64,000 nucleotides of DNA. It comes from a virus. The DNA is taken from UHGV virus genome UHGV-0020019, one strand, 5' to 3'. This document shows, piece after piece, positions 9,528 through 33,721 of this stretch. The stretch's first letter is position 1, and each line of letters begins with the position of its first letter. Both the position numbers and the translations under genes were made by a program. The notes beneath the pieces were generated by a model. The model saw only the letters and a list, made by a program, of their open reading frames with translations. It made no database searches and was not told the DNA's origin.

Positions 9528-9542
9528 TAAATACTTAGAGAT

Positions 9543-10118: not shown

Positions 10119-10188
10119 TATATTAGTCAGTTGATTTAGAGTAACTTAGGGAAAATGTTAGATACCTTATATTGATTACTTCTTTTGT

Positions 10189-10196: not shown

Positions 10197-10224
10197 CAAA
10201 TAAAGAAAATAAAGAAATATAAAT

Positions 10225-12642: not shown

Positions 12643-12671
12643 AAGTGTATAATATATAAAGAGTAGAAGTT

Positions 12672-13223
12672 ATGAAGTTAGTAACTATTGAATCTTTTCA
12701 GCTAAAAGTAGCTGATGAAGCTTTACTTATAAAGCCTATAAGGAAGCTATTTAATCAAGACAGAAGTGCATCCAAGGAGCAATTTTATAAACAGATGTCT
12801 TATCTTTACTTTATGGTAGATCCAAGAAGTACTTACTCTTATATTCTCAATGAAGAAGAGAGAGCTAAGGCTATTATAGAACAGGAAGGACTTGAAAAGG
12901 ACTTTAAGCCCTCTTCTTTATTGGAAGAAGCTATGACAGTATATAAGAAGCATACAGTAACTCCTTCACAGGAGTTGCTTAATGCTGCATTAAAGGCTGC
13001 ACATACAGTAAGTGAGTTCTTGATGAGAGATGATATTTTAGATATGGAAGATGATAAGGGTAAACCTAAATATCAAATCTCTTCCATTACCTCTGCATTA
13101 AAAAATGTAGAAGGTATTGTATCTTCTTTACAGAATCTTCAAAGAAAGGTTGAGAGTGAACTTAGTGAGCAAAGTAAGGCTAGGGGTAGTCAAGAGTTAA
13201 CAATATTTGATGAAGTGGATTAA
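12672..13223 (+). CDS. hypothetical acidic protein (scaffold-like?)
   Basis: ORF in track; charged, helical composition; 183 aa. Confidence 0.45.
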   Translation: MKLVTIESFQLKVADEALLIKPIRKLFNQDRSASKEQFYKQMSYLYFMVDPRSTYSYILNEEERAKAIIEQEGLEKDFKPSSLLEEAMTVYKKHTVTPSQELLNAALKAAHTVSEFLMRDDILDMEDDKGKPKYQISSITSALKNVEGIVSSLQNLQRKVESELSEQSKARGSQELTIFDEVD

Positions 13224-13256
13224 TATAAAGAAAGATTAAATATAGCCTTAAGTACT

Positions 13257-13286
13257 TTGTATATAGAAATAGTTTCTTTATTTTTG
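13257..13286 (+). promoter_or_regulatory. Bacteroides-type promoter: -33 TTTG (13257-13260) and -7 TATTTTTG (13279-13286)
   Basis: TTTG, an 18-nt spacer, then TAnnTTTG, ~17 nt upstream of the 13303 ATG. Confidence 0.4.
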
Positions 13287-13302
13287 CATAAAAATATGAG
13301 TT

Positions 13303-13620
13303 ATGAAGAAGTTAGTATATTTATTTATAATTATGTTTCTTGGTGTAGGATGCTCCCACCAAGGAACTTCTAGTAATGATATTAGTGTTAATAGTGATAC
13401 AGTATATATTGCTCCAGATAGTGTAAGAGATTATTCCTATATTGACTCTATTAATCAGGATTTAAAATGTAGGTCATACGAATTATATGGAGATAGTAAT
13501 TGGCTTGAGGATGGATTACCTGATAATATAATGAGAAGAAAAGGAGATACTCCCCATAAAGATACTTTATGGATGCTGAAAGAAGACACACCTTATCATA
13601 AAACGCCAATAGAGAAATAA
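13303..13620 (+). CDS. lipoprotein (signal peptide + lipobox GVGC|S); spanin-like position upstream of the lysozyme
   Basis: MKKLVYLFIIMFLGVGCSHQG: h-region plus L-G-V-G-C lipobox. Confidence 0.55.
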   Translation: MKKLVYLFIIMFLGVGCSHQGTSSNDISVNSDTVYIAPDSVRDYSYIDSINQDLKCRSYELYGDSNWLEDGLPDNIMRRKGDTPHKDTLWMLKEDTPYHKTPIEK

Positions 13621-13634
13621 AGGGAGGAAGAGGA

Positions 13635-15050
13635 ATGCCAATAAAGGATGATTCATTAGTAGCTCAATATATACGAGCAATAGAAAATCCTGATAGTGCA
13701 GGATTTAAAAATGGTATATGGTATGCTCCTCCTAAAGGACAAGGCTATGATCCTAATAACAGAGGCTTTGGTATGGATATAAATAACAACAATGATACAA
13801 AAGCCTTAACAGCAAATAGACCAGGTAAATGGCTTACAGAGGAAGAGGAAAGACAGCTTAGGTTAAAGCATTTGGAAGATAATCAGAAAACTCTTGATAG
13901 GTGGACTCCTCAAATGTTAAGAGAAATGCCCTCTGAAGAAAAGAAAGCAATGGCATTAGGAATGCTATATAGAGGTGATGGGGTTAAAAGTATAGTCAAG
14001 AATCCTACCCTAAGGAATGCTTATTACTCAGGTTCTGATGAAGATATGCAAAGAGCTGTATCAGAATATTATAAAGCTAAAAAGGTTCCAGAGAGAGCAG
14101 CTAATCACAACAAGTTTTTTAATAGTAGAAAACCTAAAGGAGAGATAGAGTTAAATTATAAACCTAAGAATTGGTTTCCTGAATATCAATCATATTCTGA
14201 AGGAGGACAATTAGAGGGTAATACATGGGATTCTTTATCTTTAGCAGATAAAGCAGAGATGATTAAAGTAGCTGTTGCTAATGGTATTACTACCTTACCA
14301 GAGATTAAGAGTGCTTATAATGAATTTGCCAAAGGTGGTTATATCCCTTCTGATAGTATAAAGAGAAGAATCTCTAATTGGGAAGGTTCTTCTATGAAAA
14401 CCAATAGAAGCTTTGAGGATGAAGCAAGAGATTTTAATAGAGTAGTGCCTACTGAAGTGAGAGATAAGCTAACACAACAACAAAAGGATGCTTTATATTC
14501 CTATGGTTATAATGTAGGTATGGGCAATCTTAAGGAAAGAGTAGTGCCTACATTAACTGCATATACTAAAGGTAAGGCAAGCAAAGAAGATGTTCAAAGG
14601 TCTATGTGGGCTAAAAGGGATAATGTGTTTAAAGGTCTTACTACAAGAAGAAATGCTGAGAGAGAAATGTTTGGCGGTAATTATAGAACTAAGTTTACTG
14701 GTACAGGGGAACTTGGAATATATTTAGACCCTTCAGAATACACTATACCACAGGGTTTCTTTGATAATTTCAATGCAGGAATTTCATTACCTCAAATGCA
14801 AATGCCTAATGGTATAGATGCTGATCCAGAGACCCTTTATAAAGCTCCTACTATTGATGAAACACTATTCTCAAAACCTGAGGCTACTCAAGAAGAACCG
14901 ATGTATAATCCTCAGCAAGAGAAAGTTGAAGGTTTAAAAAGGATGACTACTGTTATGGAATTATTGGGTCAGAATATTCCTTTTGCAGGATTAGCAGATA
15001 CCAATACTCCAGGATTATTATCCTATGTTAACCAAATATATAATTCATAA
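13635..15050 (+). CDS. peptidoglycan hydrolase with two tandem GH24 (T4/lambda-type lysozyme) domains plus a ~120-aa C-terminal domain
   Basis: Domain 1 (~1-160): AIEN...GFGMDI, LTEEEERQL...AMALGMLYRGDG, resembling T4L LTKDEAEKLF...ALINMVFQMGETG. Domain 2 (~225-345): NWEGSSMKT...DEARDF then LTQQQKDALYSYGYNVGMGNL...GLTTRRNAEREMFGG, resembling lambda-R/P22 gp19 LTQNQFDALVSFAYNVG...GLVRRRAAERALF. Confidence 0.6.
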   Translation: MPIKDDSLVAQYIRAIENPDSAGFKNGIWYAPPKGQGYDPNNRGFGMDINNNNDTKALTANRPGKWLTEEEERQLRLKHLEDNQKTLDRWTPQMLREMPSEEKKAMALGMLYRGDGVKSIVKNPTLRNAYYSGSDEDMQRAVSEYYKAKKVPERAANHNKFFNSRKPKGEIELNYKPKNWFPEYQSYSEGGQLEGNTWDSLSLADKAEMIKVAVANGITTLPEIKSAYNEFAKGGYIPSDSIKRRISNWEGSSMKTNRSFEDEARDFNRVVPTEVRDKLTQQQKDALYSYGYNVGMGNLKERVVPTLTAYTKGKASKEDVQRSMWAKRDNVFKGLTTRRNAEREMFGGNYRTKFTGTGELGIYLDPSEYTIPQGFFDNFNAGISLPQMQMPNGIDADPETLYKAPTIDETLFSKPEATQEEPMYNPQQEKVEGLKRMTTVMELLGQNIPFAGLADTNTPGLLSYVNQIYNS

Positions 15051-15060
15051 ATTATATAGA

Positions 15061-15113
15061 AAAAAGAAAGGTAGGAGGGTTCCCTTCTACCTTTCTTAAA
15101 TATTCTTTTTTAG
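15061..15113. terminator. bidirectional rho-independent terminator between convergent genes
   Basis: A-run, 14-bp stem GAAAGGTAGGAGGG / CCCTTCTACCTTTC (one G-U pair), then T-run TTAAATATTCTTTTTT. Confidence 0.5.
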
Positions 15114-15131
15114 TGTTTGAAAAATTCAATA

Positions 15132-15977
15132 CTACTCATAATCTGACATATCAAGAAGAATTTCTAACTTAGATGCGATCTCTGTCATTCTTTCTTGTAT
15201 TACACTTATCTCAGGAATCCTATGCTCATGACCTTTCTTCCATGTAACATTCAATATACCCAAATCCTCACCCTTGGAAGTTTTCATAGCTCTCATAGCT
15301 AAGGCAGTACATTGATTCTCCTTGAGAATCCTTGCATAACCAGCATCAACCTCAGTAATTTCTTCCATATTAGAGAACCATTTGAATTTATTCTTTAACA
15401 TATATCCTATAATAGGGAAGAGATTGGTAGGAATACACTGGAAATCTTTATAGTTAAATACTACACCTTCTGCTGTATTTACTGATGGGAAACTCTCATC
15501 ATAGAATCTCTTATGATATCCTCCTATATACTTTTCTGTATTATGCATTAGTTCAATGGTAACAACATCACAATGAAGAGCATCTCTAAGATAATCTGTT
15601 AATTCATTAGCCTCTTCTTCTATTCTTGAAGTCTGAGCATAACATTCTTTGTCTTTCTGTTTATTCTTCTTCTCTTGTTCTTGCATTGCTATAAGTACAG
15701 CATTCATTACTCTTTTCTGGGCATACATGGAGTATAATATCATAGCTAATCCAACAATAACACCAATGGTTATTGGGTTTGGTTTCATAATAATACTTAC
15801 TACCCAATCATATAAATCATCCCTTAAAAATAACTTACCTAAGAATAGGGCTATTAAAGTACAGAGGATTATCTTGAAGAAAATACTCACAGAGTGGTCT
15901 TTTACTTCATTTAGTTTACTGAATCCTCCTAGAAATTCTGTGATTGCCTGTATCACACTAGAGATTTTTTCTAACAT
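15132..15977 (-). CDS. membrane-anchored protein (2 N-terminal TM helices + ~200-aa cytoplasmic domain); candidate moron/accessory gene
   Basis: TM segments IFFKIILCTLIALFLGKLFL and ITIGVIVGLAMILYSMY; convergent with the lysozyme gene, isolated orientation. Confidence 0.5.
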   Translation of the reverse strand: MLEKISSVIQAITEFLGGFSKLNEVKDHSVSIFFKIILCTLIALFLGKLFLRDDLYDWVVSIIMKPNPITIGVIVGLAMILYSMYAQKRVMNAVLIAMQEQEKKNKQKDKECYAQTSRIEEEANELTDYLRDALHCDVVTIELMHNTEKYIGGYHKRFYDESFPSVNTAEGVVFNYKDFQCIPTNLFPIIGYMLKNKFKWFSNMEEITEVDAGYARILKENQCTALAMRAMKTSKGEDLGILNVTWKKGHEHRIPEISVIQERMTEIASKLEILLDMSDYE

Positions 15978-16000
15978 TACCTTTACTATTTACACATTCT

Positions 16001-16243
16001 TTACTGTTGTTCAAGGATGTCATAATGTCCAATGTGATATTTGTTACACACCCTACAGAAATAGGATGTCATTCCATATAACTTATGTTTATAGGTATAC
16101 TTATTAGCTTCTTTTTCAGTTTCATAAGTTTTCTTACTCTTACCTTTAGAGGTATAGTGTTGTCTTGGTCTGGACTTCTCAAAAGGTATCTTACAAATTC
16201 CCATATTAACAATATCTATCCTTTCATACAAAGATATATACAT
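16001..16243 (-). CDS. small Zn-ribbon-like protein
   Basis: 80 aa; MGICKIP...CRVCNKYHIGH, basic. Confidence 0.4.
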   Translation of the reverse strand: MYISLYERIDIVNMGICKIPFEKSRPRQHYTSKGKSKKTYETEKEANKYTYKHKLYGMTSYFCRVCNKYHIGHYDILEQQ

Positions 16244-16348
16244 TATGTATGATTATAGAGATGTTAAGAAAAGTGCTAAGAATAGTTACTATTTTTCTTA
16301 GGAATAGTACAATAATTTAAGGATAATAACGTTATTAGATAAAAAGAA

Positions 16349-17131
16349 TTGTCTATGAAAAATTCTTTATATCAATATTATAGTCAGAATCCTCTTAGTT
16401 TATATGAGGTCAGAAGACATTTCTTGTGGCATTTCTATTGTCAGAATCATAGTAGGAATGATGCAAGGAAAGTCTTGAAAGCTGTTGTTACCTCTTCTAG
16501 AATAGGTAGGATAATAGAAAAATCCATACAGAAAAAACATGCACCTAATTATAGTGATTTCCTATCTACTATAAAAGGAATGCTTAGATTCTGGTTTTGT
16601 TCTAAAGAAACTTTAGTGTTAGCTACTATAGAAGCTATATTGAAATGGGATATTGTAGCCAACAGAAAATTGAAGTTAAAAACTCAAGATGAATTAAAAC
16701 ATGATACTCTTGAAGTACTTAAAAAGTATTTGATATATAAAGAAGTACCCACTGATGATGTTCTTTCAGCAGAAGCTGTTCATACATCTTCTTCATCTGT
16801 GGATTTAGAGTATATGAAACCTTCTTCTGATGATAAATCTTTAGAGGATACTTCTGAATCGGAGGATTCTACTTCTCTTCAGACATGGACTTTAGATGAA
16901 TTTATCAATGAATTTGGACCAAAGATGCAAGTAAAGGAATTTGCAAACAGTAAAACAGGAGATTTATTCAAAAGTTGTGTGTTTACTAAAGGTAAAACTA
17001 GAACTTTTGTTGCTTTTTCTTCTAAGTTAGGTGAACACACTAAGAAAGAATTACTTGATATGAAGGATGAATTAATAATACTGAAAGTACAAAATGGTAA
17101 GTATAAACTTGCCAAGCATTATTATACATAA
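16349..17131 (+). CDS. hypothetical protein with acidic S/D/E patch
   Basis: ORF in track; DTSESEDSTSLQ. Confidence 0.45.
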   Translation: MSMKNSLYQYYSQNPLSLYEVRRHFLWHFYCQNHSRNDARKVLKAVVTSSRIGRIIEKSIQKKHAPNYSDFLSTIKGMLRFWFCSKETLVLATIEAILKWDIVANRKLKLKTQDELKHDTLEVLKKYLIYKEVPTDDVLSAEAVHTSSSSVDLEYMKPSSDDKSLEDTSESEDSTSLQTWTLDEFINEFGPKMQVKEFANSKTGDLFKSCVFTKGKTRTFVAFSSKLGEHTKKELLDMKDELIILKVQNGKYKLAKHYYT

Positions 17132-17365: not shown

Positions 17366-20300
17366 TTATCTATTAGAAGGTGAAGCTTCAAATATCTTAA
17401 AGATAGCATCATCTTCATCCATCCTCTGCATCTGTTCCCAATCCTTAAAGAATGGCATATTGTATTTTACCATATTTCTCCAATACTTGTTTTCTCCTTT
17501 ATGGTCTCCTGATTTAATATCTGTAACAATATCACCATTGGTAAGACCATAGAAAGTATAGAGTAGGGAGTTCATAGTATTCAATGATGCCATAGGAGAA
17601 TTAAGTACTGTCAACCAGTTAGAGATATTCTTAGGGTGAGGCATTGAAGCTTCAGTATCAAGAATAGCTCTTTTTGTCTGATATATCCACCATCTTCTCC
17701 AAAATTCTCTCTTATGTTTATCTGGATCTCCAAGGGCAAAACCAAGACCTAATAGACAAATGTACATAAGCATTTCTGCTCTTACTCTCTTAATATTATA
17801 CTTCTGCATATCATCAAGATTATGCCATTGTGCCTGAGACCTAAACATAAAGGTATAGAAGTCTTTCATAAAAAGTCCAATAGCATCTAACTTCTGACCA
17901 CTATTCCAAGTATCTTTGGTATCATCATTGGTAAGACCTTTGTATAAACTATACCAATATCCTTCTCTATCTTCTCCAAGAGAAGCATCAAAGTGTCTCT
18001 TCCTAAACCTTCTGGAATAATGCTCAATCATCCATTGACGAAAATTCATAATACCACGTCCCCACCATTTTTGATGTAATAGTCCTTTATCCTCTTCATT
18101 CATGGCACCATGAGTAGACTGGTTAGCATAACGAAGTTTCTTTCTTACTTTATCAATAAAAGCATCTGTTATAGCATTTCCATCAAGGTCTGTTACTCCA
18201 GACTTTAGGTGAAGTTCAGAGTTACCATCCTGTTTATTAACTATTTCAAAGGCATCATATAAGCTTATCTTCTTTCCATTTAATAATACTTTCTGATTAT
18301 GAAGAACACCATACATGTTTACATAATGAATAAGATACTCACCAGAAGAATAGCCAATGAATGAACAATCATGAGAGATTAATTGTCGGAACATACTTTT
18401 ATAGTATTTAGTATGGCTCTTTTCAGAGAAGTTTTCCTGAAGAGGGTCAAACAGTTCTCTCATAAGTACACTCTTATGATTTACATTGTTAGTAAGTAAC
18501 TCTGCCAGTTCTCCTCCAACACCTGCACTACCAAATAGTTTAGTATGTGCCCAAGCATAATCCTTGAAGTTGTAAAATTCACCAGCACCAGCTTCAATCA
18601 TCATCTGAAATTCACCCATAAGGTAATTGGCAACAGCACCTTTGACATTAGTTGCCAAGCCTTTAAATGAAGTATAGGCAATGATATTACTGAACATCTT
18701 AGCCCAAGTCTTGTTTTCATTAGGGTCTCTGTTTTGTCCATAGATATGCTGAGCAATGAAACCTTCTATAAGTTCTGTAGTATTGGTATTTTTCCCTCTT
18801 TTCCACAAATCCTTGAATACTCTTATCTCTTTATTCTGTATCACATCACCTTTTGGGTCTTTATCTCTAGCACTCTGATTTTTCACAAAGTCACCAATAA
18901 ATTCAACAACCTGTGCTATCTGACTCATAGAATCATAATTAATAGCTGTTCCTGCAAGGGCTGCAATACCAGTTGAGAAGTTTTTAAGAAGTTCTCCTTC
19001 TTCAACTTTGTTGACAAAGAAAATAGGAATTTGTCTTAATGGAGTGTTATCAAAAGCACCTTCTGTAATCTGATATTCATCACCATCAATAATACCATTC
19101 ATATTATAGTTTTCATCATCTTCCCTTATTTTATAGAAGTTCTCAGCTTTATTTCTTACAGCTTTAGCTACATCCTTGAAGTTCTTAGCATCATGCATGG
19201 CATCAAGGAATTTACGTCTTATTTGTGGTGGAAGATATTGATGTTGTGCATAGGCTGGTAGAAGAGAGCCAATCTCACCTTTAAGTTGCATCATAGTATC
19301 ATAGTATTCAATTTGTTCCTGAGTCCAATCTTTCTGAAAGTTATCCCTCTTTCTATAACTATCATTAGGTACCCTTTCTGTTCTACCATTTTTACCATTA
19401 GTATTATCTACAACTCTATCTTCTGTATTCAGGTCTTCCCAGTCTTCAATAGCCTGTTTTAAATCAAAACCTCGAAAACCTTGACTATAGAGAGACTTAA
19501 TCTTTGCTGATCTTGCTGCTTTATATAATTTCCAATCTATATCACTAACTATATGACCATCATCCTCATACATAAATTCAGAATTATGTCCAGCTTTATG
19601 GAGTTTATCTGTAGCTCGACGAATCCTAAGAGATATACTATTCATAGCTGCATCCCTTGAATCCTGAGCATTCCTAATGACAGAACCCATAGCACCAATG
19701 ATAGGATTAGATGCTCTACCTATGCTATATAACCAGTCAAATTTAGTAGAGTCTGTAGTAGCCATTCTGATAGCATTGATCATAGACTGACCATCAGGAG
19801 TAGTGTTTCCAACAATTTCTATCATAAGGTTGGTCATAGTACTCTCTGTAAGATTATCGAGCATATTTTCCTTTTTATCAAAGAACTCTTTCAAGTCTTT
19901 AGCAGTCTGACGAATATTATCAATGTCTGTTTTGGCAATGGACTCATCAATGGTAAGATTCTCATCTGCCAAAGCTGATACCAATGGATAATATTGCTCT
20001 TTAAGGGATTTAATATCCTGTAGAATCTTAGCAGTACCAAAGGCTTTCTCTAATTCTGTACCCGTTTGAGGAATACCTTGAAGCATAGTATCAATATCAG
20101 CTATCTGAGAAGATGCTTCTCCTAAGAAATTTAATACTCCAGAGTAATATTTTTTACTAGATAACTCCTTCATAAGTTTATTAAGTACACCTTCAAGTCT
20201 TTTTCCTTCAGTATTATTACCTTTTTCCTTTTCAAGTTGCCTAATCTGCCTTTGAAGAGTAATAGCCGCATCTGCTGCTGCGTCAGAAAGAGTTCTAATT

Positions 20301-21262
20301 TTAGATGATGTCCTATGAATCTCATTGATGTCTATCTTATACTTCTTATTAAGCATTTGAATTTCAGCCTTAATCTTCTGTTCAGGACTATTAGTATAGA
20401 TATTGTTTTTCAATTGAGCAACCTGATTAATAAGAGCATCCATATCTATACCTTGATATTTCTTGGCATCAGTAATAGCCCTCATTAATAATCTCTGTTG
20501 TGGAACAGTAAGATTTATAGCTCCATGATTAAAGTCATTAAGGGTCTGTGCTGCATTTTCAATAGAACCAAAGGTGTTGATAACCCTTTGAACATGTGGA
20601 GAATTAGGACTTAAGGAGAATAGAATCATAGCATCCTTCTTATAAAGGTTACTAATATCTACTCCTGCAAGGTTCTTAAGATATTGTGCTAAATCAGTAT
20701 TCATAGCATTGAATACACTTTGCAGTTCTTGTGGCATAGTAGTTATATCTACACCTACATTATTAAATACCTGCTTATAAATATCCCAAGTCTGAAGATT
20801 TTTCTTAACACTATCTCCATAGGTATGTGTCCTGGAGTTCTTCTCTGAAACAATGATGTTATAGATATCACCATGTTGTACTACAATTGAAGTAAGTCCT
20901 TTATGATTATCGTTGAAATCATCAGCTTTCCTTAAAGCATCTTCTGCATTTGAGAAATCTACTCTCTTACCATTGATATCTACTGCTCCTAACTGAAGTT
21001 CTGCTGTAGAAAGATTACCAATATCTTCCTGTATAGACTTGAAGTCAAGGAACTTCAATACATCTTCTGCATTATGCTGTCCCTGACTATTCCTTTCTAT
21101 ATTAGCTTGGTCCATCTTATCTGCCATATCAGATACAGTATAGGAGGCATAGAGCCAATTAGTAAGAGGTCTATTCTTTAGTTTCTCAAGCATCTTTTTA
21201 TACATCCTTGAAGGCTCCCCATTGGGAGCCTCAGGATATAAAATACATGAACTATTACTCAT
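17366..21262 (-). CDS. 1298-aa virion/ejected-cargo-like large protein
   Basis: Immediately downstream (3-nt gap) of the 4151-aa ORF on the same strand; long helical regions; no recognisable enzymatic motif. Confidence 0.6.
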   Translation of the reverse strand: MSNSSCILYPEAPNGEPSRMYKKMLEKLKNRPLTNWLYASYTVSDMADKMDQANIERNSQGQHNAEDVLKFLDFKSIQEDIGNLSTAELQLGAVDINGKRVDFSNAEDALRKADDFNDNHKGLTSIVVQHGDIYNIIVSEKNSRTHTYGDSVKKNLQTWDIYKQVFNNVGVDITTMPQELQSVFNAMNTDLAQYLKNLAGVDISNLYKKDAMILFSLSPNSPHVQRVINTFGSIENAAQTLNDFNHGAINLTVPQQRLLMRAITDAKKYQGIDMDALINQVAQLKNNIYTNSPEQKIKAEIQMLNKKYKIDINEIHRTSSKIRTLSDAAADAAITLQRQIRQLEKEKGNNTEGKRLEGVLNKLMKELSSKKYYSGVLNFLGEASSQIADIDTMLQGIPQTGTELEKAFGTAKILQDIKSLKEQYYPLVSALADENLTIDESIAKTDIDNIRQTAKDLKEFFDKKENMLDNLTESTMTNLMIEIVGNTTPDGQSMINAIRMATTDSTKFDWLYSIGRASNPIIGAMGSVIRNAQDSRDAAMNSISLRIRRATDKLHKAGHNSEFMYEDDGHIVSDIDWKLYKAARSAKIKSLYSQGFRGFDLKQAIEDWEDLNTEDRVVDNTNGKNGRTERVPNDSYRKRDNFQKDWTQEQIEYYDTMMQLKGEIGSLLPAYAQHQYLPPQIRRKFLDAMHDAKNFKDVAKAVRNKAENFYKIREDDENYNMNGIIDGDEYQITEGAFDNTPLRQIPIFFVNKVEEGELLKNFSTGIAALAGTAINYDSMSQIAQVVEFIGDFVKNQSARDKDPKGDVIQNKEIRVFKDLWKRGKNTNTTELIEGFIAQHIYGQNRDPNENKTWAKMFSNIIAYTSFKGLATNVKGAVANYLMGEFQMMIEAGAGEFYNFKDYAWAHTKLFGSAGVGGELAELLTNNVNHKSVLMRELFDPLQENFSEKSHTKYYKSMFRQLISHDCSFIGYSSGEYLIHYVNMYGVLHNQKVLLNGKKISLYDAFEIVNKQDGNSELHLKSGVTDLDGNAITDAFIDKVRKKLRYANQSTHGAMNEEDKGLLHQKWWGRGIMNFRQWMIEHYSRRFRKRHFDASLGEDREGYWYSLYKGLTNDDTKDTWNSGQKLDAIGLFMKDFYTFMFRSQAQWHNLDDMQKYNIKRVRAEMLMYICLLGLGFALGDPDKHKREFWRRWWIYQTKRAILDTEASMPHPKNISNWLTVLNSPMASLNTMNSLLYTFYGLTNGDIVTDIKSGDHKGENKYWRNMVKYNMPFFKDWEQMQRMDEDDAIFKIFEASPSNR

Positions 21263-21265: not shown

Positions 21266-24200
21266 CTAACAATATTTTTTAAACTCATTAATTGCTTCAT
21301 CAATACTTAAATCTAATCCTTTCTGTTTAAATACATTCTGTAAAAACTTACCAAAGACCTTTTCTCTACCTTTAATACTCTCAGCCTTCTGTAAAGCTTC
21401 CTCCTTACTTAATGTAGAAACCTGTTTCATAATCAAGTCTGCAAATGCTGCAAGATTCTTGATCTCTTCAGTCTTTGTAATAACCTGGCTATTAGAAGTG
21501 CCTTTTACATTAGACTCTTGAGGACTTTCTGTCTTCAAGTCAGAAGCAGAGTTATCTTCAGTAGTCTTGGTAGTATCACTCAATGGGTCTTTGATATCTA
21601 AAGTACTCATCTCTAAGTATTCACCATTGTTACCAAGAGGTTTAATTAACTCAAAAACAAGTTCTTCACCTTTATCAGAAGTAAGATGCCAAAGATAAGT
21701 ATTGTTATTCACCTTAGTCTTCATATAGGAAATACCTGCAAGATCAGCAATATCCTCAGGTCTATAGACAGTCAATCTATTATGCTTAACATCTACATTA
21801 TAGTGAGTATCCTTGCCTCCCTTTCTTGGAACTAGCTTGTTGTTTTCCCAGTTATTTCTAATAAACTGATCAATCACCAAGTCAGGAATTACCTCAGGGA
21901 AGTTCCTATATGTATCAACATAGGTGGCATTACCATTCTTACTCTTCAGCTTTTCCTTTACATAGGTAGGTACCAAAGACATGAAAGTCTTAGGAGAAAA
22001 TCCAATACCAGCTCTAAAGAAACTGTAGTTAAACAGCATCTGAGAAAGCTCTGGGTCTTCTTTATGCAAGTCAATCCAAGCACTGCGAAGTTCTTCCTTT
22101 TTCTGTTCATCCATACCAGTGATATTAATCATAAGATATGGTCTTCCAGTCTTCTTGGAAACATTCATTCTAATAGCTTGAATCAAGGCATTATCTGAAT
22201 ACTTTTCCTTGAACTTCTGTTCCATAAACCACTTAGGAAATTCTGTAGCATAACTTTTAAGATGCTTAGGATTAATCAGACCTGACTGTATCAACAGATA
22301 AGACTGATAGAAGTTAGAGAACTGATCCAAAAGTTTCTTGTCATTATACATCTTATCAGCAATATCAGCAGGAAGATTAGCCAATAGCTTTCTGAAACCA
22401 TTGCTACCAGTAGGCATATCAGAGAAAATAGCCTTTGCAATATCCACAGTTCTTGCAAACTGTTTCAATACTGGATGGTCAAAGAAGATGTCATCAATAT
22501 CAACAGGCATACTATCAACAGTGTAGAAATGAGTACCATTCTCTGTGTTAACATCAATGAACTGAGACATTTTATGCTCAATGATAAGATTATCTACAAT
22601 GAGTGGACCAACAGCACTTGATATAGAATTGAATCTTGTAGCATAAGTAGGCTTACGCATAGCATCAGTAAGACTTCTCATTTTCTGGAAAGCAAGAAGT
22701 ACTTTGTAATCAGTAGCTTCATGTTCCTCGGAAGTAAGACCTTCAACCAGTTCCTCTGTAGTAAGTTCCTCGGTATTAATCAAAGAATCATCATTGATGT
22801 TATTCTTTTCTCTATACTCAGTCAGCCATTTCTCAATGATGTTGGACAAAGATTCATAATTGGTAAGATTCTCTCTATTGAACTTGTTGAGGGTTCTTTC
22901 TATAATATCCTGGGAAAGGAAGAGAGCTGCATCCTCAAATGTCATACCCAATCTAAGCATAGTATTCAGCATACCAGCTGTAGTCATGTTAATATTCATC
23001 AAGTTCAAGATTGGATCTTTTACAGCATCTGCTGAAGCTGATACCAAAGAACCTAAAGTCTTACCAATAAGGTTACCATCTCTATCATACTTCATATCAA
23101 CCTGCATTCTTTCACCAAAGGTAGTACCTGCAATAGTGAAGGGATTTTCTCCACAGATTTCAGATACATCAAGAAAGATGTCATTACTCTCAAGAGTAGC
23201 ATGAGCTACCTTATTTACAGCAAACACACCAATCAATGATGCAGCAGCACTATTCTGCTTATAGAACTGTACCTGAGTATCAGCAAAGGTAAGGTCTTTA
23301 TCTGTATAAGAAAGGTCTTTGAGTTCATCAATAGACATTTTCTGAAGGTCAGACCACTTAATACCCTTGTTAGCAGGATTCTTATAGGCAGCAACCATAT
23401 AACCCATTTTCTTAGGAGCATCAAATCCTCCAGGATTAAGAATCTTATCAGCAGTCATCTGATTAGTGAGTACTGCATAAGTCATATCGATAATCTTGTT
23501 ATCTCTGTATGTTCTACCAGAAGTAGGAGCATCAGTATAATAAGCAACCTGTTGATATTTACCATAAAGCCACTGCATGAATTTATCAGCAGACTTCATC
23601 TTCTGAGGATTGTCGAGGAACATTCTTACCTGTTCACCAACCCAAGTATTGTTGGTCTTACCATCATGTGCCTTCTTATAGCTTTCAGTTGTTATGTTAA
23701 ATAGCTCCTTTTCAATCTCATTTTTCTTTCTTGTCTTGATAGGAATATCCTTACGCATGACATATCTCTTATCAACATCAAAGTCAGAGTCATCAATCTC
23801 AGTAAGCTCATAAGGAAGCATGATAGCATCACCAGCTTCTCTAGGCATGAAACCTACAACCTTCATTGGAGCACAAGAGTACTTATCCTCTGTAGGAATA
23901 CGGTAACTTACCATTTTAAGAAGCTCTGGATCCACAGCATTGATAGCATCTACATTAATAGTACCATCAGCATTGGAGAATTTATCAAAGAGTTCATTAG
24001 ACCAGATAGGAGCAAAGACTTCAAAGTAAGCAATACCACCTTGATTTCTCTTGAGATACTCCTTATAGGAAAGATTATCATGCTCAGAAGCATTATACTC
24101 TTCCTCAAGAGGCATAAGATTACCTTGCTTGTCATTAAATCTGATATGCAACTGAGTAGACATACCAAAGTTAGATACCTGAACAATAGGACCACCAGCA

Positions 24201-27200
24201 ATCTTCTGCTTATTTACTCTGTTCTTAATGATAGAGTTGATAAGCTGTTCAATTCTCTTAGCCTGTATTGGGTCACCTTTTGGTATTCTAAATTCACCAG
24301 TCTCCTTATCAATAGAACAAGCCTGCAAGAGGTCTATTCCATATCTAGGAGAAGACATGATTTCTCTCTGAAGAATCTTGGAAAGAGCAATATTCTGTTC
24401 CTTCTTATCTTCACTGTTGAAGTGCAACTCTGCTGCAAGATTATTAATACTTTCCTCAATGTTGGCAGCAATAGTCTTCTCATACTCTTTTCTAAATTCA
24501 TCAGCCTTTACCTTTCTGTGAGTACCATCAGGTTCTGTCCACTCATAGTAGTTATCTACTTGATTACCATTCTCGTCAGTAGTATAAAGGTCAAGGTCAG
24601 AAGGAGTAATCATTCTAATCTGAGAACCATGAGCCTGAGAATGCTCCTTAAAATGCTCAGGAACTTCTTGCTGCAAGCAGTAGTCTTCATAGGAAGCCTC
24701 ATGTACAAAGGTCTCAGTATTATAGTTCCTATAAACTCTTTCACCTGTAGCATCAGTCTCTTCCTTGAAGATTTGATTCTTCATATAGGTATAGGCAGCT
24801 TCCTCACCACCTTCCATATCTCTGAACTGGAAGATATTCATCTTACCTTGAAGACCAGACTTAATGGCAGATTCAAACTGAACAGTATCAATGCCCTTGG
24901 TAGGATTCAACTTCTCTGAATCTTCCATTACTCTATAGACAGCTCTAAGGAGATTTGGTCTGGAGAGCTTTTCACCTTTAAGGATAGCATCAGCCATAAT
25001 GAGAAGATACTCTGCATTCTTAGCCTGGAAAGGTACTTCCATAGAATGAATAGGAGCATTAGCTACACCCATATCCTTTGTAAGCTTTGAATACACAAAT
25101 GGCTTCAATGGCTGGAATGCTGTCTCCAAGTCAGTATAGTTGTACTCACCTTTCTGTAACTTCTGATAAATATCTTCTGCTTGCTTAGACCATCTACCAA
25201 AGATAAATGCTTTCTTTCTGTAAGATGAAGGAGATGAATATCCCTGAGCATCAGTAACATTAATCTTAGTATACTTACCATCCTTGCCTACAAGAGATTC
25301 CTTAAGAGCCATCATCTGAGCTTTCTGATTCTCTGGAGCAGCAGCAATTCTTCTATCAAAGACCTCTGCAATATTGGCAATGATGTTAGACTTGAAGCTG
25401 TCAAAGTCCTGTAAGATGAATGTTCTATACTTACCATCAGATACTCTGTTACCATTATAATCGGTAGCATAAATGTTACCTCTTACACCTGGAGCATGAA
25501 GCTGTGCTAAACGCTTCTGCAAGTCCTCAGTATCCTTATAGAAAGCAATATCTGTAAGAGTCAGCTGTAAGATATTCTTAGAAGCAAAAGCATCATTCCA
25601 AAGATAATTCTCTACCTGCTTTCTTACCCAGTCAGTAGCTTCCTCATCTTTCAACTCAGAAGGGTAGATACCCTTGATACTCTTAGCTGCTTCCAAAATA
25701 CCATTGTTCTCCCAGTTGTTGAGGATAGACTGAACTCTATCTTCCATGTGCTGACGGATAACTTTATCAGCAAGTTTACCAAGCTCTGCTTCTTCCTCAG
25801 CAGTAAGAGCTACTTCTCCATCTACTTTCTTCTGAAGGAGAGATGCTAATCTATTATTATCAGAAGAGATAGTATTATCTTCATTACGAAGAATATCTCT
25901 CTTGGCAATCTTGTCAGCAGTATTCTCCAGATAGTTATTCAATACAGGAAGGAAGTTAAACCTACGTCCATTGGTATCAAAGTTCTTGATGAAACCTGCA
26001 TCTTTTTTATCCATATTTCTCATTCTGACAGTCTGGATTCTGCTAAGTTCCTGCAAGAACATATTATGAAGACCATAGACAATGGAATCCTTATAGTTTG
26101 CACCTCTATAAGAATAGAACTTGATGAACTCAGATGATGGTTTGTTAGACTGCATAGGTATTCTGAACCAAGCTGGAACCATATTGGTATTATTATCAGT
26201 ACTCTCTGCAAAGTACTCAGTGATAAGGGATAAGGTATATTCTGCATCACTCATATTACGCATATAGTTATGCTTGTTGAAGTTCAACTCTACCTTATGA
26301 TCAAATACCTTACGAGCATTTTCATCCTTAGCAAGTATTCTAAGCCACTCATTTCTCCATCCTTTATCTACATCACCATTTTGGAACTTAAACCATTCTG
26401 AAGAACCATATTCATCCATAATGAAGTCTTCAAATGCCTGACCTTCCTGACGGAATTTATTCATCAGTTTAGTCATAAATGATGGTGTAATATAAGACTG
26501 ATACATCTTGCCACTGTCATAGAATGCATTGACAGCAGTATCTTCCAACTTGTCAGTAATAGGAGTAAGAAGATTCCTCAAACTACCACCAATAGAGTTC
26601 TCTGTTCCAAACTTAAATGGGTCATACTCCTTGAGAGTTCCCTTATTCTGAGACTGTAAAGCCTTATCCAAGTCCTTGACAATATAACCAAGAGATTCTG
26701 TAATCTTCTTAATGTTTTCTGCATTGACTACATCAGTAAGCATTTCCTCTGTGATGTTATAGCCAAAGCTCTTACTGATACCTAAAATGTTATCAGTAGC
26801 AGTCTTTGACATAGTATCATCCAAAGTCTTTCCTTCCTTAATAGCCTTGTCAATCTCTCTCAACTCAGTCAGAGCCTTATGAAGATTGAACTCAGAGTTC
26901 TTTCCTGTAGTCTGGTCAGAACCAAGAAGCTTAGAGTTAATCTTACCATTATTACCAAAGAGAGGATGTTCTCCAATCTTGAATAGGGCAGAGATGGACT
27001 TCATTGCTTCTGAGAGTGCAGGATGACTATTTACAGTCATGCTATAATACTTATCATCTTCAAGCAATACAATAGAATAGAGCTGGAAATGCTTAGAAAA
27101 TACTCCATAGAACTGGCTTTGGAAATCAGTCTCCTTACCACTCTTATCAGAAAGTCTTTCAATAAGCTGGGATAACCAAGGGTTCTGCTTCTGCTTATCA

Positions 27201-30200
27201 GACAATCTCTTAATCATATCATCAAGAGATAATGCTCCCTGTGTCCATCTCAAGATACTATTGACAGACTCTCTAGGATTTACCCTTTCTGCAATTCCCC
27301 ACTTACTATATACCTTGTTACCTTCTGCATCCAGGAGATAGCATTGATGAAGACCTAATCTTACCAAGGCAGACATAGAGTTAAGAACATCAATGGTTCT
27401 AGATTCAACCTGCCAATGTTCCTGCTCATCCTTTTCTCCTTCTTCTGCTGCTATATCCTGATCATTGGAATAGTCATTGAAGTTATCAAAATCTACCTTA
27501 GAGTCTTCTGTGGTAGTAAAGTTACCTCTGCTATAGTCCTTGGTAATACCAAAGCCTTCATTCATAGCAAAGATGTCTGCTGCCAGATACATAATAGCAT
27601 CCCAGTTGTCTGTAATCAGCTGAGCCTGCATCATGGTATCTGTATCCTCATAATCCATTACCTGAGGTGAGAACAGAGTTTTGGTTCTCTCAATAAGTCT
27701 ATCCAAACCTACAGTTTCTACAATCTGCTTTCTAGATGCAGACTGAAAGTCTAGGTCTGTATTGAGGGAAGGGAATAGAGTCTTTGCAAGACCTTCTTCC
27801 TTCTGAAGATTAGTAATCTCATCAGAGATAGAGTTAACTATCAGTTCTGCTGTATGACGAACTTCTGTAGCAGACAGAGAAGCACCAAGTTCCTCTAAGT
27901 CCTTGTCACCATTAAGCAGGTTGTCAATCTGCTTATTAAGCTTATCATACTCACTTAGATTAGTCTCAACTTCTTTCTTCTGAGAATCCTTAGATTCCTG
28001 AAGATACTCTTTCTCACTTGTTGCTTGAAGCACTGTGTCCATTTGATTGATAATGTTTTGATTTTCCTCAAATGAGTTCTCCATAGATAACTGTGCATCC
28101 AATTCCTTTAAATAAGGTATCTTCCAGGTAGCATCTACTGGTGTCTCATCATAGAGGTCATTAAAGTATTCATAACCTGGAAGAGAAACTTTCTGTGTTT
28201 GTTCTTCTGGGAAAGAAGGATTAGTTACTTCTGTTTCAGTTCCTTTATTATCATCAAAGACTATAACATCAGGATTCTTCACTATATATTCTGTGTTATC
28301 TGCCCACATAGTTCCCTTGTCAAGCACAATAACATCAGCTGTAGTGTTTCTTCCATTTTTTACATAGTCTCTAATATCTTTGTAGTGTTCTACTTTTGCA
28401 GTAGAAAGAATATGGAATTTGCTAACTTTAGCATAATCCCCAGTATAGTGTCTATTGATTCTATTGCCTTCTGGATGCTCTGCTGTAGGAGGTTCAGGAG
28501 ATTTATCTGTTCTACTCTTAGCATAATCAGTAGCCTCTTCTTCACTTGATGTAAAGTAGAGTGCTCCCTTAAGAGTTTCATCATAATCTACTGCTGTCTT
28601 TCCTACAGTTTCACCAAGAGTTTTAGCTTCTCTATCTTCCATTAAGGCATATCCTCGATAGATAGTAAGTGGTGATTTACCATCTTCTGAGTATAAACCA
28701 TCTACTTCCTTAGATAACTGACTTAACTGATACTGTTGAGCAGCATCATAAGAGTCTTTATCAAAATGCTTAGGCTCTGCTACTTCATGGTCAACCATAA
28801 ATACAACTTGAGGATTACCATGATTCTTTGCAATATTATCATGGTCATACTCCATATTGTAATCCATAGTTGCAGCAGTATGGAAACCTAAAGTCTTCTT
28901 ATAGATAGCCTGTAATGGCTGCTTTGCACTCATGTAGGCATCAAGATGGGTAGCACCTTCTTCCTTAACCATATCTTTAATAGCATAAAGGAAACCTTTA
29001 TTAGTACTAGGGCTAAGAGAGAATACACTTATCAAATTGCCATCAGGTTCTATAGCAAATCCACATAAACCATCTTCTGTAATAAAGCATTTTGCATTAG
29101 AATAATTATCATGTAAATCTACTAATTCTCCATTAGGAAGATAGATTCTTACCATCTCAAATATATCATGGAATAATTTTCCATCTACTCTTCCTACATT
29201 AAAAGTGCCTACACTATTATCTTTGTTTGTATGGGTTAAATGAGATTGGACGCCATGCCAGCTACCATTGCTGTTGGCTCCCAAGAGTCCTCCCAGAATC
29301 CCTCCGATTCTTTCTTTATCCTCGTCATTAAGTTCCCTTTCTCTGAGCTGAAAGCTGGATACTCCTTTTTCAGAAAATTTACGGCTTCCTTCTTGAACTC
29401 TTCTAAACTCATCTGTTGTTTTGTATTCTTCTGTTCCATTTTCTTTTGAATTTTTATTTTCAGAACGTGAATTACTTGAACTTATTGTATTATCTTTGAT
29501 ATTTTTATCAAGATGTAAAGGAGAGCCTTCTTTCTTGACATTGTTACTAATAATGGTAACAGTATCTGTAGCTCTTGATACACCAACATATTCAAGCTGC
29601 TGCTTGATATTAGCTACTTGATCAGGTTGAGTATTCTTTACTTCTACATCTACATCACTAAGGTCTCCTAAATCAACTTCTTCAGAACTCTTTAACTCTG
29701 CATTGGCTGCATCATTTCTAGTCTCTTCTCCAAGGTCAACCATCTCCATAGCATTAGCAGCATTGTTGTCACTCATAGAAGCCCTAGATACATCTACATC
29801 ATCCATCAGTACATGGGTAAAAGTAGAACCTTGTGACTTATGAATGGTAAGAGCATAGCCAAAGTCAATAGTCTTAGCCTGTAAAAGGTTATGGCTATTA
29901 TCTTCAATGTTATCATTGACAAAGAGGAAAGAATCAATAGCATTAATCTTAGCATAGACTGCTGCCTTAGCTTCTCTACCATAAGCTCTTCTAGCTTCAT
30001 TCCATAATCTCTTCTTCTCATTGGCAAGAATCATGGCACTCTGTCTATTCTGGGCATTGTTCTTAATGTCCATGAAGTTGAATGTATCTATATTACCTAA
30101 TGAGTCTTCAAGAGTAATAGGAACAGCCTGCATCACTACAGGAGTACCATTATCTAATCTGGTCTGTACTGTAGTAGGTCTGCCTACCTGAGTTACTTTG

Positions 30201-33200
30201 TATGATTCAGAATTAATGAATCTATAACTCTTAGTTCTCCATTCATATCCCCAGTTAGCATAACCTGTCATAGGCTCACCTACATGTGGAATAGGAGAGT
30301 CATAACCCAAAAGTTCTCTTACCTGATTATTGTAAGCAGTTACAGCCTTGTTGGTATAAGCTAGGATTCTAAAGTAATTAGGATTCTGCTTCAAGCCTTT
30401 AACATACTTATCAATAACTTCATTGATAGCATCTTGATGCTGAGGAGCAATATATGCAACACCCTCACCTTTACTATTGAATGATGATATCCTAGACAAA
30501 GGTTCTCCATTACGGATAGCTGTAGCTTCCTTAAGGATAGCATTGTCATCTGTTCTCTCTACTTGGGTAAGACGGATGACTTTACCTTCACCATTTCTAA
30601 AGACCTTAGAGATTTTATCCTCATTGACAGGAGCCAGCTGAGCTTCATCACCTACATAGATAATCTTAAGATCCATTTTCTTGGCAATATCATTAAGGAT
30701 TTTATAATTCTCCTCATTGATCATAGAAGCTTCATCGATAATAATGGTAGTTCCTGGCATGATGTCTACATCCTTCAAGACATTTACCAAGTTTCTAGCA
30801 TTATAAGATTTGCTTGAATCTACTTCTACATTGATACCAAACACCTTATTTAATGTAGATGCCTTGAAGCCAGCCTTAGATACTCTGTCATTAAGTACTG
30901 CTGCTGCCTTATTGGTTGTAGCACAGAACATCACAGGTCTATTCTGCTTCTGTCCTTTCTTAGCAATCATCTCCATAAGAGAAGTCTTACCAGTACCGGC
31001 ATAGCCACTAAGAGTCATAGATGTCTCATTGGACTTCATGAATCTATCCATCTCATTGAGAGCATCTATCTGCTGAGCATTTGGCTTGAATGGAGCTTTG
31101 ACAGTAGTACCATCTGCAAATGTAAAGTCTTGAGGCACAGCTTTTCCACTGTGTTTATTATCTTCTGGTACATTGTTTACCAAATCATAATCAGCACTTT
31201 CCTGCTCAATAAGAGACAGCTCATCCTTAAGTTCCTTGCCAGATATAGTACTAACAAACTCACCTGTCTTTGCATAATCTGCAATGTTGTTGTTTGTCTT
31301 AGAGAATGTTCCTATATTATCTGTTGCTGACTTAATCTGATTAGGATTATGAACAACATATATAGTTTGATTCTCTTTCTTATTATCATCAAAACCAGTA
31401 AGGACTATACCATTTTCAGAACCCTTTCTTTTAGATGACTTATTTACTATCTCTCTATAAGAAGTTCCTTGCTTGTGCAAGTCTTCCTTAGTACCATGAA
31501 ACACTTCTAAGTTTTTTATGTTCAAGAACAATGATAACTTGGCTTTTCTACTAGTTAAGAAATTATCCTCACTACCAGGCACAACATTATCTGTGGTAAA
31601 GAATATGGCGTTCTTAGTACCACCTGTCTTTGAGAAGAAATTATCGAACTCTGTGCTAAACTCAGACAGATTTTCATTATCAGTATAATGATAGACAACC
31701 AAAGGTTCTCCATTTTCATCTACTACTTTAGAAACATCTGAAGAATATGCTGGAGTGTAATTAGCCTCAATATCTGATGATTTAATATTACCACTTAATT
31801 TAGCTGTATCTTTAATAACAGATATTTGAGAATCATTAGAATCCCCATAATTTTTCAACAAAGAGTCTTCTGTAATTTCAATTAATCTAGGAGAATACTC
31901 TTTTGTAATGACAGCTTCCTTATATTCTTTATTACCTACATTGAATGTATTTCCATTGGTAGAAATAAATTCAGTTTGAGGCATATCATATATATAAGGT
32001 TTACCATCAATACTCAATGCTGCTACATAGTGAGTTATGATTTTTCCTGTAACAGGACTTTTGGCATTTATTATATTAGTATGGGCTTCAATCCCATATC
32101 TATCCTTTAAGAATGCTTGTATTCTTTGTGCTGTATATTGACATATTCCATTTAAAGGATTTGACCTGTTAACTAAAGTTCCTACTTTTATAACATTAGA
32201 TACGCCTATACTATTAAAACCAAATGGATCTTCTTTTGTAGTTTCTTTTCTTTCTACTGGATGAGACAATATTTCATTAGAAGTAGAATAGGTATTTCCC
32301 AAAGGATCTTTTTTAAGTATATCTACATACTCTCCTGTTCTTTCCCAAGTAGATAAGCCATATTGTCTAGGAGGTGTATATTCCTTTTCCCAATCACCAA
32401 ACCACTCTTTAAAGGCTTTAGTTCTAACTTGAAGCCACTGTCTTTCACTAAGATTAGAGTTCTTACCATTAGGTGCCTTCATAAAGGTACCGTTAGCAAT
32501 AGCTTTGCTCTTTAAAGCTTGTAACTCTTCATTGTACACCTCTCTATTAAAGTCATGAACAATTTCCTTCTTTAGTTCATCATCAGACAGTGTTCTGAAA
32601 TCCCATTCCTTCTCATTATACTCCTTTCTCAAAGGATTCTTGATACCATTATATCTCATATAGGTATCAATATCAAAGGCATCAAGAGCTTTCTCCAAGG
32701 CATTCATTGACCTCTGATAGTATGTATTGGAGGTATGAAGACTAAGAAGAGTCTTGAAGGCATCAAGTACTCTAGACCAGAAAGACTTCTTATCCTTATT
32801 CTGCTTGTCAATCTCTTGAATCTTACTTCTAAAGACAGGATTACCAAGTTCTGCAACAAATTCAAAGACATCAACAATGCCTCTTTCACCCTTTAAGATA
32901 GGATTGGTCTTGAGGTCTTGGTAGAGAGAATTAACTTCTGTACGGAACTCCTGCAAAGCTTCAGGTCTCTTCCAATTCTCAGTCTGATTGGAGAGAGCAT
33001 ACATAGAGATAGAATGAAGTACTTCATGAAGAATGATAGAAGCCTTCATATTGTTCATTATATCTCTTTCAAGGAAAGACTTCTTATAGATGATAGTATT
33101 GCTATTGGTGTATCTACCAATAGTTCCAAAAGGAAGAGATTCATTAAAAGATACCTCAATACCTAAGTCCTTAGCAATGCTAAAGACTTTATCAGCCAAT

Positions 33201-33721: not shown

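Follow-up and report, generated by a model that had tools for sequence, protein, structure and literature searches.

A giant gene of a crAss-like phage carries a virion RNA polymerase homologue, a Dda-like helicase and polyvalent cassettes in one reading frame

Introduction

Among the phages of the human gut, crassviruses are the most abundant. Giant, multidomain RNA polymerase (RNAP) proteins of up to about 6000 amino acids (aa) have been published for crAss-like phages, with zincin fusions and, in some, a PDDEXK domain. The first description of such crAss RNAP polyproteins is reportedly that of Yutin et al. 2018. According to Drobysheva et al., a virion protein bearing the motif DFDxD is found in every crAss-like phage; that of phage phi14:2, gp66, carries it as 1361-DFDID-1365, loses its activity upon Ala substitution of each Asp, and is ejected and produces the early transcripts. 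These authors also showed that recombinant gp66 uses only single-stranded or denatured DNA as template in vitro, and reported that QDE-1, a eukaryotic relative of gp66, needs the helicase QDE-3 plus replication protein A (RPA). How an ejected crassvirus RNAP starts on double-stranded DNA is an unsolved question, gp66 being the only characterised enzyme. Here we describe a gene on the virus genome UHGV-0020019, analysed as a stretch of 64,000 nucleotides that we refer to as the window, whose product joins a homologue of this virion RNA polymerase (vRNAP) to a superfamily 1 (SF1) helicase and to a series of exchangeable modules.

Two further sets of observations bear on this protein. Firstly, mass spectrometry of crAss001 virions has shown that Gp47, Gp49 and Gp50 are present as cargo, and the crAss001 study concluded that the cargo proteins leave the virion before or with the DNA; packaging into virions, ejection and rifampicin-resistant early transcription are documented for phi14:2 and crAss001 only. 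Secondly, the polyvalent proteins described by Iyer et al. 2017 include the vRNAP of coliphage N4, fused to an HExxH peptidase, an ADP-ribosyltransferase (ART) and other domains, and polyvalent proteins are known from the same work to carry helicases for DNA manipulation.

Results

The gene, which we annotate as encoding a polyvalent virion RNA polymerase protein, occupies positions 21266-33721 (-), stop codon included. It is a single uninterrupted open reading frame (ORF) of 4151 aa with an ATG start and no internal stop, and only one more codon is open upstream of the ATG in the stop-to-stop frame. The predicted product has a mass of 473 kDa and an isoelectric point (pI) of 5.3. A 12.4-kb open frame in DNA of 35% G+C cannot have arisen by chance. 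The original prediction, drawn from the letters of the window, described a continuous frame joining a zincin-like HExxH module, a complete SF1 helicase and an RNAP-like aspartate triad, and both the frame and the positions of the motifs proved correct: HEVLH starts at residue 232, GTGKT at 909, IIIDEASM at 993, HKSQGS at 1294 and DFDVD at 3313, and the sequence quoted for about residue 3310, EIDDSDFDVDKRY, occupies residues 3307-3319. HEVLH is the sole HExxH and DFDVD the sole DxDxD within the protein. As estimated from residue frequencies, 4151 residues are expected to hold about 0.1 HExxH and about 1 DxDxD by chance, and such a lone occurrence is not significant; the weight given to these two motifs comes from homology and conservation.

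Residues 1911-3966 (21824-27991 (-)) correspond to the crAss-type two-barrel vRNAP and are homologous to gp66 of phi14:2 and Gp50 of crAss001, as indicated by tblastn and by matches to the structure 6VR4, the phi14:2 gp66 DNA-dependent RNAP. A phmmer search of residues 3000-3700 against the PDB gave 6VR4 as its only match (E 5.1e-16), spanning query residues 3082-3615 and chain residues 1163-1675, and the alignment pairs SDFDVDKRYVM of the window protein with SDFDIDKMYVM of 6VR4. A longer C-terminal query reached chain residue 2029 (E 1.4e-10), and a 10-sequence profile of residues 1911-3000 matched chain residues 309-1035 (E 1.6e-27). It should be noted that 6VR4 was missed by phmmer of the whole protein against the PDB and surfaced only with sub-segments and profiles. 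By tblastn, the C-terminal 2150 residues matched genes annotated as 'putative RNA polymerase' in 120 phage records. The best match was that of cr116_1 (Steigviridae, Pamirivirus), with 50% identity, and the identity to crAss001 Gp50 was 27% (E 1e-118). Thus, judged by homology, residues ~1911-3966 are a homologue of the crAss-like vRNAP, and the near-full-length similarity to 6VR4 suggests that two double-psi beta-barrels form the active site. DFDVD (residues 3313-3317, 23771-23785 (-)) is its predicted Mg-binding catalytic triad. The RNAP assignment that had been proposed is therefore sound, since DFDVD aligns with the catalytic DFDID of gp66 within this homology. The G-to-V difference from the beta-prime type of motif, which had been presented as a departure from the catalytic form, is not one: DFDxD, and not DFDGD, is the known crAss-type motif, so that the 'deviation' is the norm of the family. 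The polymerase is preceded by a conserved linker (residues 1831-1910, 27992-28231 (-)) and followed by a fast-evolving C-terminal tail (residues 3967-4151, 21269-21823 (-)).

Two side observations concern the polymerase gene. The RNAP gene of cr116_1 is split exactly at the DFDxD codons by an insertion (NC_055882.1, about 47513-48361), which holds a LAGLIDADG endonuclease ORF (Pfam, 8.7e-25) and is flanked by two sub-threshold matches to group I introns (32-35 bits, E about 1e-6); the window RNAP gene has no intron at this site. In addition, plus-strand ORFs of 100-290 aa (24041-24919 (+) and others) overlap the RNAP coding region in antisense. Rather than genes, they are most probably shadow ORFs, because their 'conservation' in cr116_1 falls opposite its RNAP strand.

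Residues 860-1400 (29522-31144 (-)) were assigned to the SF1B helicases of the Dda/RecD2 type on the basis of matches to Pfam, PHROG and PDB entries and of the motifs. Above the Pfam cutoffs we found AAA_30 (7.7e-31, 107.7 bits against a cutoff of 27), PIF1 (35.5 against 25.9), UvrD_C_2 (29.5 against 27.4) and also AAA_19; PHROG 325, 'Dda-like helicase', matched with 2.1e-77, and among solved helicases Dda (3upu) was matched with 6.8e-10 and RecD2 (3e1s) with 3e-3 to 3e-4. Walker A (GYAGTGKT, residues 906-913), motif II (IIIDEASM, 993-1000), motif V (HKSQGS, 1294) and motif VI (VSRAT, 1381-1385) are present, and none of the motifs I, Ia, II, III, IV, V and VI varies among eight orthologues, down to 46% identity. 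The earlier description of a complete SF1 Dda/RecD-like helicase is thereby supported from several sides, and by its sequence this region is a complete SF1B Dda-like helicase. The ratio of nonsynonymous to synonymous substitution rates (dN/dS) is 0.05-0.13 for the helicase versus 0.035-0.12 for the RNAP; as these ranges match, the helicase is under purifying selection as strong as that acting on the polymerase. The helicases of cr50_1, cr118_1 and cr8_1 share the motif set, motif V being altered in cr50_1. Between motifs V and VI lies an acidic insert of variable length (residues ~1306-1375, window 29597-29806, pI 4.05), which is specific to the clade of the window protein and absent from the helicases of cr50_1, cr118_1 and cr8_1. 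We detected no further SF1 helicase in the window, and none anywhere in the cr116_1 genome.

We then considered whether the joining of helicase and polymerase is real. A scan of IMG/VR returned 30 loci, at least 15 of which, most of them from a single large IMG dataset and the rest from two or more further ones, carry uninterrupted ORFs of 3812-5226 aa with 46-98% identity; nearly all of these show the domain order head, HExxH, cassettes, helicase, cassettes, RNAP, in which the cassettes may be present or absent. Of 1.84 billion representatives searched exhaustively by HMMER with the helicase, 3727 matched at E<=1e-10. Among the 149 best cluster representatives, which were retrieved, 66 are at least 3000 aa long; in these giants, three simple RNAP queries placed the helicase before the RNAP in 24 cases and the RNAP before the helicase in 12, and several further giants have DFD[IV]D ~1000 residues upstream of the helicase. 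Dozens of clusters at 50% identity likewise hold the continuous architecture. A Megablast search of phage records with the gene brought no useful match.

An assembly chimera, or a decaying gene with a dead helicase fused to the polymerase, could in principle produce such an ORF, and single in-frame stops do occur in two related contigs. The same architecture in at least 15 contigs from several datasets and in dozens of clusters argues against this explanation, as do the retention of all catalytic motifs and a dN/dS of about 0.1, and we regard it as hardly credible. Stop codons splitting the ORF had been named beforehand as an observation that would speak against the fusion; single ones were seen in these two contigs, and the same frame is open in at least 15 contigs. 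The two cases differ in position. In the Logan contig SRR23294231, which holds a 91%-identical orthologue, TAA replaces GAA of the motif II catalytic Glu (12989-12991, IIID*ASM), leaving in-frame pieces of 996 aa and 3312 aa, which could reflect a sequencing error, a natural helicase knockout or recoding. In IMGVR_UViG_3300045988_108473, which holds a 97%-identical orthologue, a single in-frame stop (~13848) lies in the N-terminal half of the RNAP, and the alignment continues in the same frame.

Proteins of this kind are already deposited. Two Suoliviridae genomes in RefSeq that are classified by the International Committee on Taxonomy of Viruses, cr50_1 and cr118_1, have the helicase C-terminal to the RNAP: cr50_1 gp059 (4774 aa, 'DNA helicase') carries HExxH at 1665, DFDID at 3154 and the helicase at 4235-4680, and cr118_1 gp14 (4946 aa, 'exonuclease V') carries them at 1734, 3209 and 4429-4883, respectively. 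UniProt lists an 88%-identical orthologue of the window protein under the name 'ATP dependent DNA helicase [CrAss-like virus sp. ctcfK29]'. The labels 'DNA helicase' and 'exonuclease V' in RefSeq and UniProt are mislabels, explained by the added modules that vRNAP genes carry. Related helicases are also encoded by stand-alone genes of 450-510 aa in other gut phages, in the case of cr8_1 (Intestiviridae) within the replication block. As to novelty, the original prediction had considered the three-part fusion to be undescribed, which is partly so. In the literature covered, no passage came to light that describes the fusion of a helicase to a crAss vRNAP or treats a crAss vRNAP as a polyvalent protein; this is absence of evidence only, as Yutin 2018 and the domain maps of Yutin 2021 (Fig. 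3) fall outside that coverage. On the other hand, the presence of an HExxH/zincin domain fused or adjacent to crAss RNAPs had been published by Drobysheva et al., and helicase-RNAP giants stand in RefSeq and UniProt under the names just given. Hence, this is a helicase-bearing variant of a known vRNAP that is common in databases under misleading names and apparently undiscussed.

The N-terminal part of the protein starts with a conserved domain (residues 1-118, 33368-33721 (-)) that is modelled by AlphaFold2 (AF2) with a predicted local distance difference test score (pLDDT) of ~90. It is always N-terminal in related polyvalent proteins and present in nearly all intact orthologues mapped, has no Pfam hit, and is a possible packaging or ejection handle. 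It is followed by a gp65-type zincin-like HExxH domain (residues 119-395, 32537-33367 (-)) containing the HEVLH motif (residues 232-236, 33014-33028 (-)). In the AF2 model of residues 1-460 (mean pLDDT 79.6), HEVLH lies on a helix (223-243) that comes after a three-stranded sheet, a succession of elements that fits a zincin-like domain. H232, E233, H236, F288, A290 and E291 of the module are invariant, and E287 is at least 90% conserved. Pfam gave nothing for this module, and its profile gave sub-threshold matches to the PDB that are centred on HExxH: an M48 peptidase (E 0.13), an 'internal virion protein' (0.2) and PhiM1 gp48 (0.59). Foldseek against viral models retrieved a 1421-aa structural protein of phi14:2, S0A048 (E 3.4e-7), and a T7-like 'Internal protein D' (8e-5). 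From its length and source phage, S0A048 is probably phi14:2 gp65, the 'RNA polymerase associated protein', which according to Drobysheva et al. holds the crAss 'Zincin-like' domain. An hhalign comparison of the module profile with gp65 residues 1-420 gave a probability of 98.7% (E 1.7e-16), pairing HExxH (gp65 residue 245) and a downstream EF[VI][AS]E..NPVFR motif. Based on this homology, the module is a member of the published gp65 Zincin-like family and a putative peptidase. The zincin-like assignment that had been made thus stands as far as membership of the gp65 family is concerned; solved zincins are matched only weakly in fold, and none of the curated peptidase families gave a match.

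The crassvirus cargo proteins contain a second HExxH type, YHEAFH[RV]V, which occurs in crAss001 Gp47 (residue 2157), cr50_1 gp059 (1665) and cr118_1 gp14 (1734). As the gp65-type head differs from this YHEAFH domain, two types of HExxH domain exist in these proteins. The idea that the window module is distinct from the published crAss zincin, taken as the YHEAFH domain of Gp47, cr50 and cr118, was rejected in view of the Foldseek and hhalign link to gp65. In the window's homologue at the Gp47 position, the YHEAFH domain would fall past the window edge. CrAss001 Gp49 and the ORF downstream of the giant gene, both without HExxH, are the counterparts of the C-terminal part of gp65; in the window lineage, the head has shifted onto the RNAP protein.

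Between the head and the polymerase, the helicase is surrounded by modules that the original prediction had overlooked, namely an ART-PolyVal, a GNAT-fold and a possible Cys-His-Asp module, together with the polyvalent-protein framework into which they fit. The first of these regions is a short conserved junction module (residues 396-450, 32372-32536 (-), ..RTKAFKEWFGDWE..) that precedes ART or GNAT cassettes. Its motif of ~50 residues, ..LQVRTKAFKEWFGDWE.., is found directly ahead of ART/GNAT cassettes in numerous polyvalent proteins that are otherwise unrelated, some of which have two copies. Residues 396-450 may be a site at which cassettes are exchanged, either as a junction for recombination or through processing. 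The variable cassette that follows (residues 451-660, 31742-32371 (-)) has invariant Cys526, His564 and Asp579 and a weak Pfam match to Tox-PLDMTX (E 0.03); it is missing from most orthologues and is tentatively papain-like. Next is an ART-PolyVal ADP-ribosyltransferase cassette (Pfam PF18760; residues 661-820, 31262-31741 (-)), matched at residues 668-806 with 49.6 bits against a cutoff of 31.2, which in close relatives is replaced by Kinase-PolyVal (PF18762) or missing. Beyond the helicase lie a GNAT-fold acyltransferase cassette (residues 1410-1675, 28697-29494 (-)) and a mobile cassette of unassigned fold, with low pLDDT and no Pfam match (residues 1676-1830, 28232-28696 (-)). The latter had been tried as a second ART-like domain because of its YRG/FTSS motifs, and was rejected on account of low AF2 confidence and the lack of a family match. 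Searches of Pfam and PHROGs with residues 1-660 and 1400-4151 and sub-segments of them, up to E 10, gave no hits beyond the weak Tox-PLDMTX match.

Homologues of the cassettes are scattered among proteins with Kinase-PolyVal, LPD3, LPD23, PBECR3, MuF_C, NADAR, SprT and DUF1848. The modules ART, Kinase, X, GNAT and G are present or absent between relatives of 80-97% backbone identity, the head, helicase and RNAP being constant. By these sequence comparisons, the N-terminal 1900 residues are a classic polyvalent protein array. Cassettes were also encountered within polymerase sequences. In a more distant phage (L030:6281-12865), module G (window residues 1676-1830) lies inside the RNAP just upstream of DFDID; stop-codon reassignment is suggested for this phage because its gene falls apart into short ORFs when read with code 11. 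In four proteins of 450-500 aa (P0163, P0167, P0168 and P0173), a GNAT is joined directly to a segment like RNAP residues ~3206-3338 including DFDxD, and these may be fragments of split RNAP genes with a GNAT next to the active site.

By polymerase homology and crassvirus synteny, the window belongs to a crAss-like phage. The product of the downstream gene (17366-21262 (-), 1298 aa) is homologous to crAss001 Gp49 and to the C-terminal region of gp65, and we annotate it as an RNAP-associated cargo protein. A partial gene at 3-6425 (-), which encodes at least 2141 aa and runs off the window, is 33% identical to cr116_1 gp047, the positional counterpart of the crAss001 Gp47 cargo protein. Between these two cargo genes, at 6710-17131, are mostly plus-strand genes, including a portal gene (10225-12642, PHROG 6547, 4e-144), an endolysin-like gene (13635-15050) and a terS-like ORF; as both cargo genes adjoin in crAss001 and cr116_1, this block represents a rearranged crassvirus layout. 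Upstream of the giant gene are homologues of thymidylate synthase, PolA, ribonucleotide reductase, uracil-DNA glycosylase, primase and DnaB.

Discussion

Given the homologies described above, the protein is very probably a polyvalent vRNAP protein that is ejected and whose helicase is functional. That it works as an early-transcription machine, delivered by ejection, whose tethered helicase supplies single-stranded template is the interpretation that we cautiously favour. The protein would be produced late and packaged into the capsid. Before the DNA or together with it, the protein would be threaded into the Bacteroidota host, where it would then refold. The polymerase would transcribe the early genes, the 5'->3' helicase would run along the non-template strand, in the direction of polymerase movement, and open the duplex to provide single-stranded template, and the ART and GNAT would modify host targets. 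Helicases of the Dda/RecD2 type have the polarity for this, since a 5'->3' SF1B motor on the non-template strand moves with a polymerase that reads its template 3'->5'.

Besides this polarity, three considerations led us to think that the helicase assists the RNAP. First, gp66 needs single-stranded or denatured DNA, and QDE-1 needs QDE-3 and RPA. Second, the helicase is the only non-polymerase enzyme that is never swapped out in the clade. Third, the linkage recurs in two domain orders. Template opening for transcription as the specific job of the helicase is nevertheless a point on which we stay somewhat reserved. The wider proposal, that the tethered helicase is the missing duplex-opening factor of the two-barrel vRNAPs and that such ejected machines evolved repeatedly in Crassvirales, in both orders, is put forward only tentatively.

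Several observations weigh against a role in transcription. Relatives exist without a fused helicase: the RNAP proteins of phi14:2 and crAss001 have no helicase match, and cr116_1 has no SF1 helicase, so that the helicase is an accessory and not a requirement. The ~500 residues of swappable cassettes that separate helicase and RNAP argue for a loose tether and not a rigid machine. The similar helicase kept by cr8_1 in its replication block makes a role in replication or recombination equally natural, and a role in replication or anti-defence after cleavage is plausible. Finally, the motif II stop in SRR23294231 is either a sequencing error or a sign that the helicase is dispensable.

In an alternative reading, the protein is a delivery vehicle and the helicase one more effector beside ART and GNAT, acting apart from the polymerase after ejection, possibly after cleavage by the HExxH or the Cys-His-Asp module, in early replication or recombination, or in counter-defence by stripping DNA-bound proteins or shielding DNA ends. 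The N-terminal 1900 residues do behave as a polyvalent cassette array, DNA-manipulating helicases are known in polyvalent proteins (Iyer et al.), related helicases stand alone in the replication block of Intestiviridae and in other gut phages, and Drobysheva et al. expect fused crAss polyproteins to be cleaved. However, no exchange of the helicase is seen within the clade, in contrast to the true cassettes, and the closest relatives of the helicase among 1.8 billion proteins are mostly inside giant RNAP proteins, in two orders, which argues for selection for physical linkage to the polymerase. We therefore consider this alternative rather unlikely.

The relationship of the head to T7-class internal virion and ejection proteins raises another alternative, namely that a gp16-like or tetrameric ejection protein (TEP)-like head holds the protein at the ejection channel, with the helicase reeling the phage DNA in. 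Such a motor would be comparable to RNAP transcription in the case of T7 and N4, and it would also clear DNA-bound host proteins. SF1B enzymes translocate efficiently, a structural relationship links the N-terminal domain to the T7-class proteins, and cargo proteins leave the virion before or with the DNA. Yet SF1B helicases need a single-stranded 5' loading site, which is perhaps lacking on an entering duplex end, and the Suoliviridae helicase lies at the far C-terminus, distant from any head domain. An internalisation motor is for these reasons quite improbable.

Returning to the helicase as a partner of the polymerase, the many natural helicase-polymerase fusions in two orders constitute a 'Rosetta stone' hint that a Dda-like helicase is a functional partner of the crassvirus enzyme, and the fusion gives a defined construct for testing helicase-polymerase coupling. 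Furthermore, the vRNAP proteins of crassviruses act as scaffolds on which host-modifying cassettes (ART, kinase, GNAT) can be exchanged. The polyvalent-protein concept is thereby carried beyond the N4-like phages, to a polymerase unrelated to theirs.

Compared with phi14:2 gp66 (2180 aa) and crAss001 Gp50 (2412 aa), the window protein shares homology over gp66 residues 309-2029, the aligned DFDxD and the Gp49/gp65-like gene downstream, and from this homology it is expected to be a virion cargo that transcribes the early genes. It differs in adding ~1900 N-terminal residues (HExxH head, ART, helicase, GNAT and others), and the gp65-type HExxH head is on the RNAP protein in the window, whereas it is on the downstream protein in phi14:2. 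The proteins cr50_1 gp059 and cr118_1 gp14 likewise combine an HExxH, a DFDID RNAP and an SF1 helicase in one ORF, and the cr50_1 helicase is the best match to the window helicase in the phage database (35% identity). In these two proteins, however, the helicase is C-terminal, the HExxH is of the Gp47 YHEAFH type and lies mid-protein, and comparison with the window protein revealed neither ART nor GNAT cassettes.

The polyvalent proteins, including the N4 gp50 vRNAP, also mix an RNAP with HExxH, ART, GNAT and helicase modules and swap cassettes. The N4 RNAP, on the other hand, is T7-like and unrelated to the two-barrel enzyme of the window, and the window helicase is of the SF1B Dda-like type, whereas described polyvalent proteins have SNF2 or UvrD types. 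The T7-class internal virion protein D and the tetrameric ejection protein PhiM1 gp48 (PDB 8VB2) have only one domain in common with the window protein, which, unlike the T7 gp16 class, has no lytic transglycosylase domain (no SLT or lysozyme Pfam hit) and is not a member of the gp16-class internal virion/ejection proteins. In Thermus phage P23-45, gp96 is another two-barrel virion RNAP fused to a large ejected protein, but its partner is the tape measure protein and no helicase is present. The Neurospora system of QDE-1, QDE-3 and RPA offers a structurally related two-barrel polymerase that favours single-stranded DNA and depends on a helicase, although QDE-1 and QDE-3 are separate proteins, QDE-3 is a RecQ helicase (SF2) and the process is eukaryotic RNA silencing. 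If the wider proposal made above is true, the helicase-polymerase machine of these phages would parallel the QDE-1/QDE-3 partnership, from which the polymerases of eukaryotic RNA interference are thought to derive.

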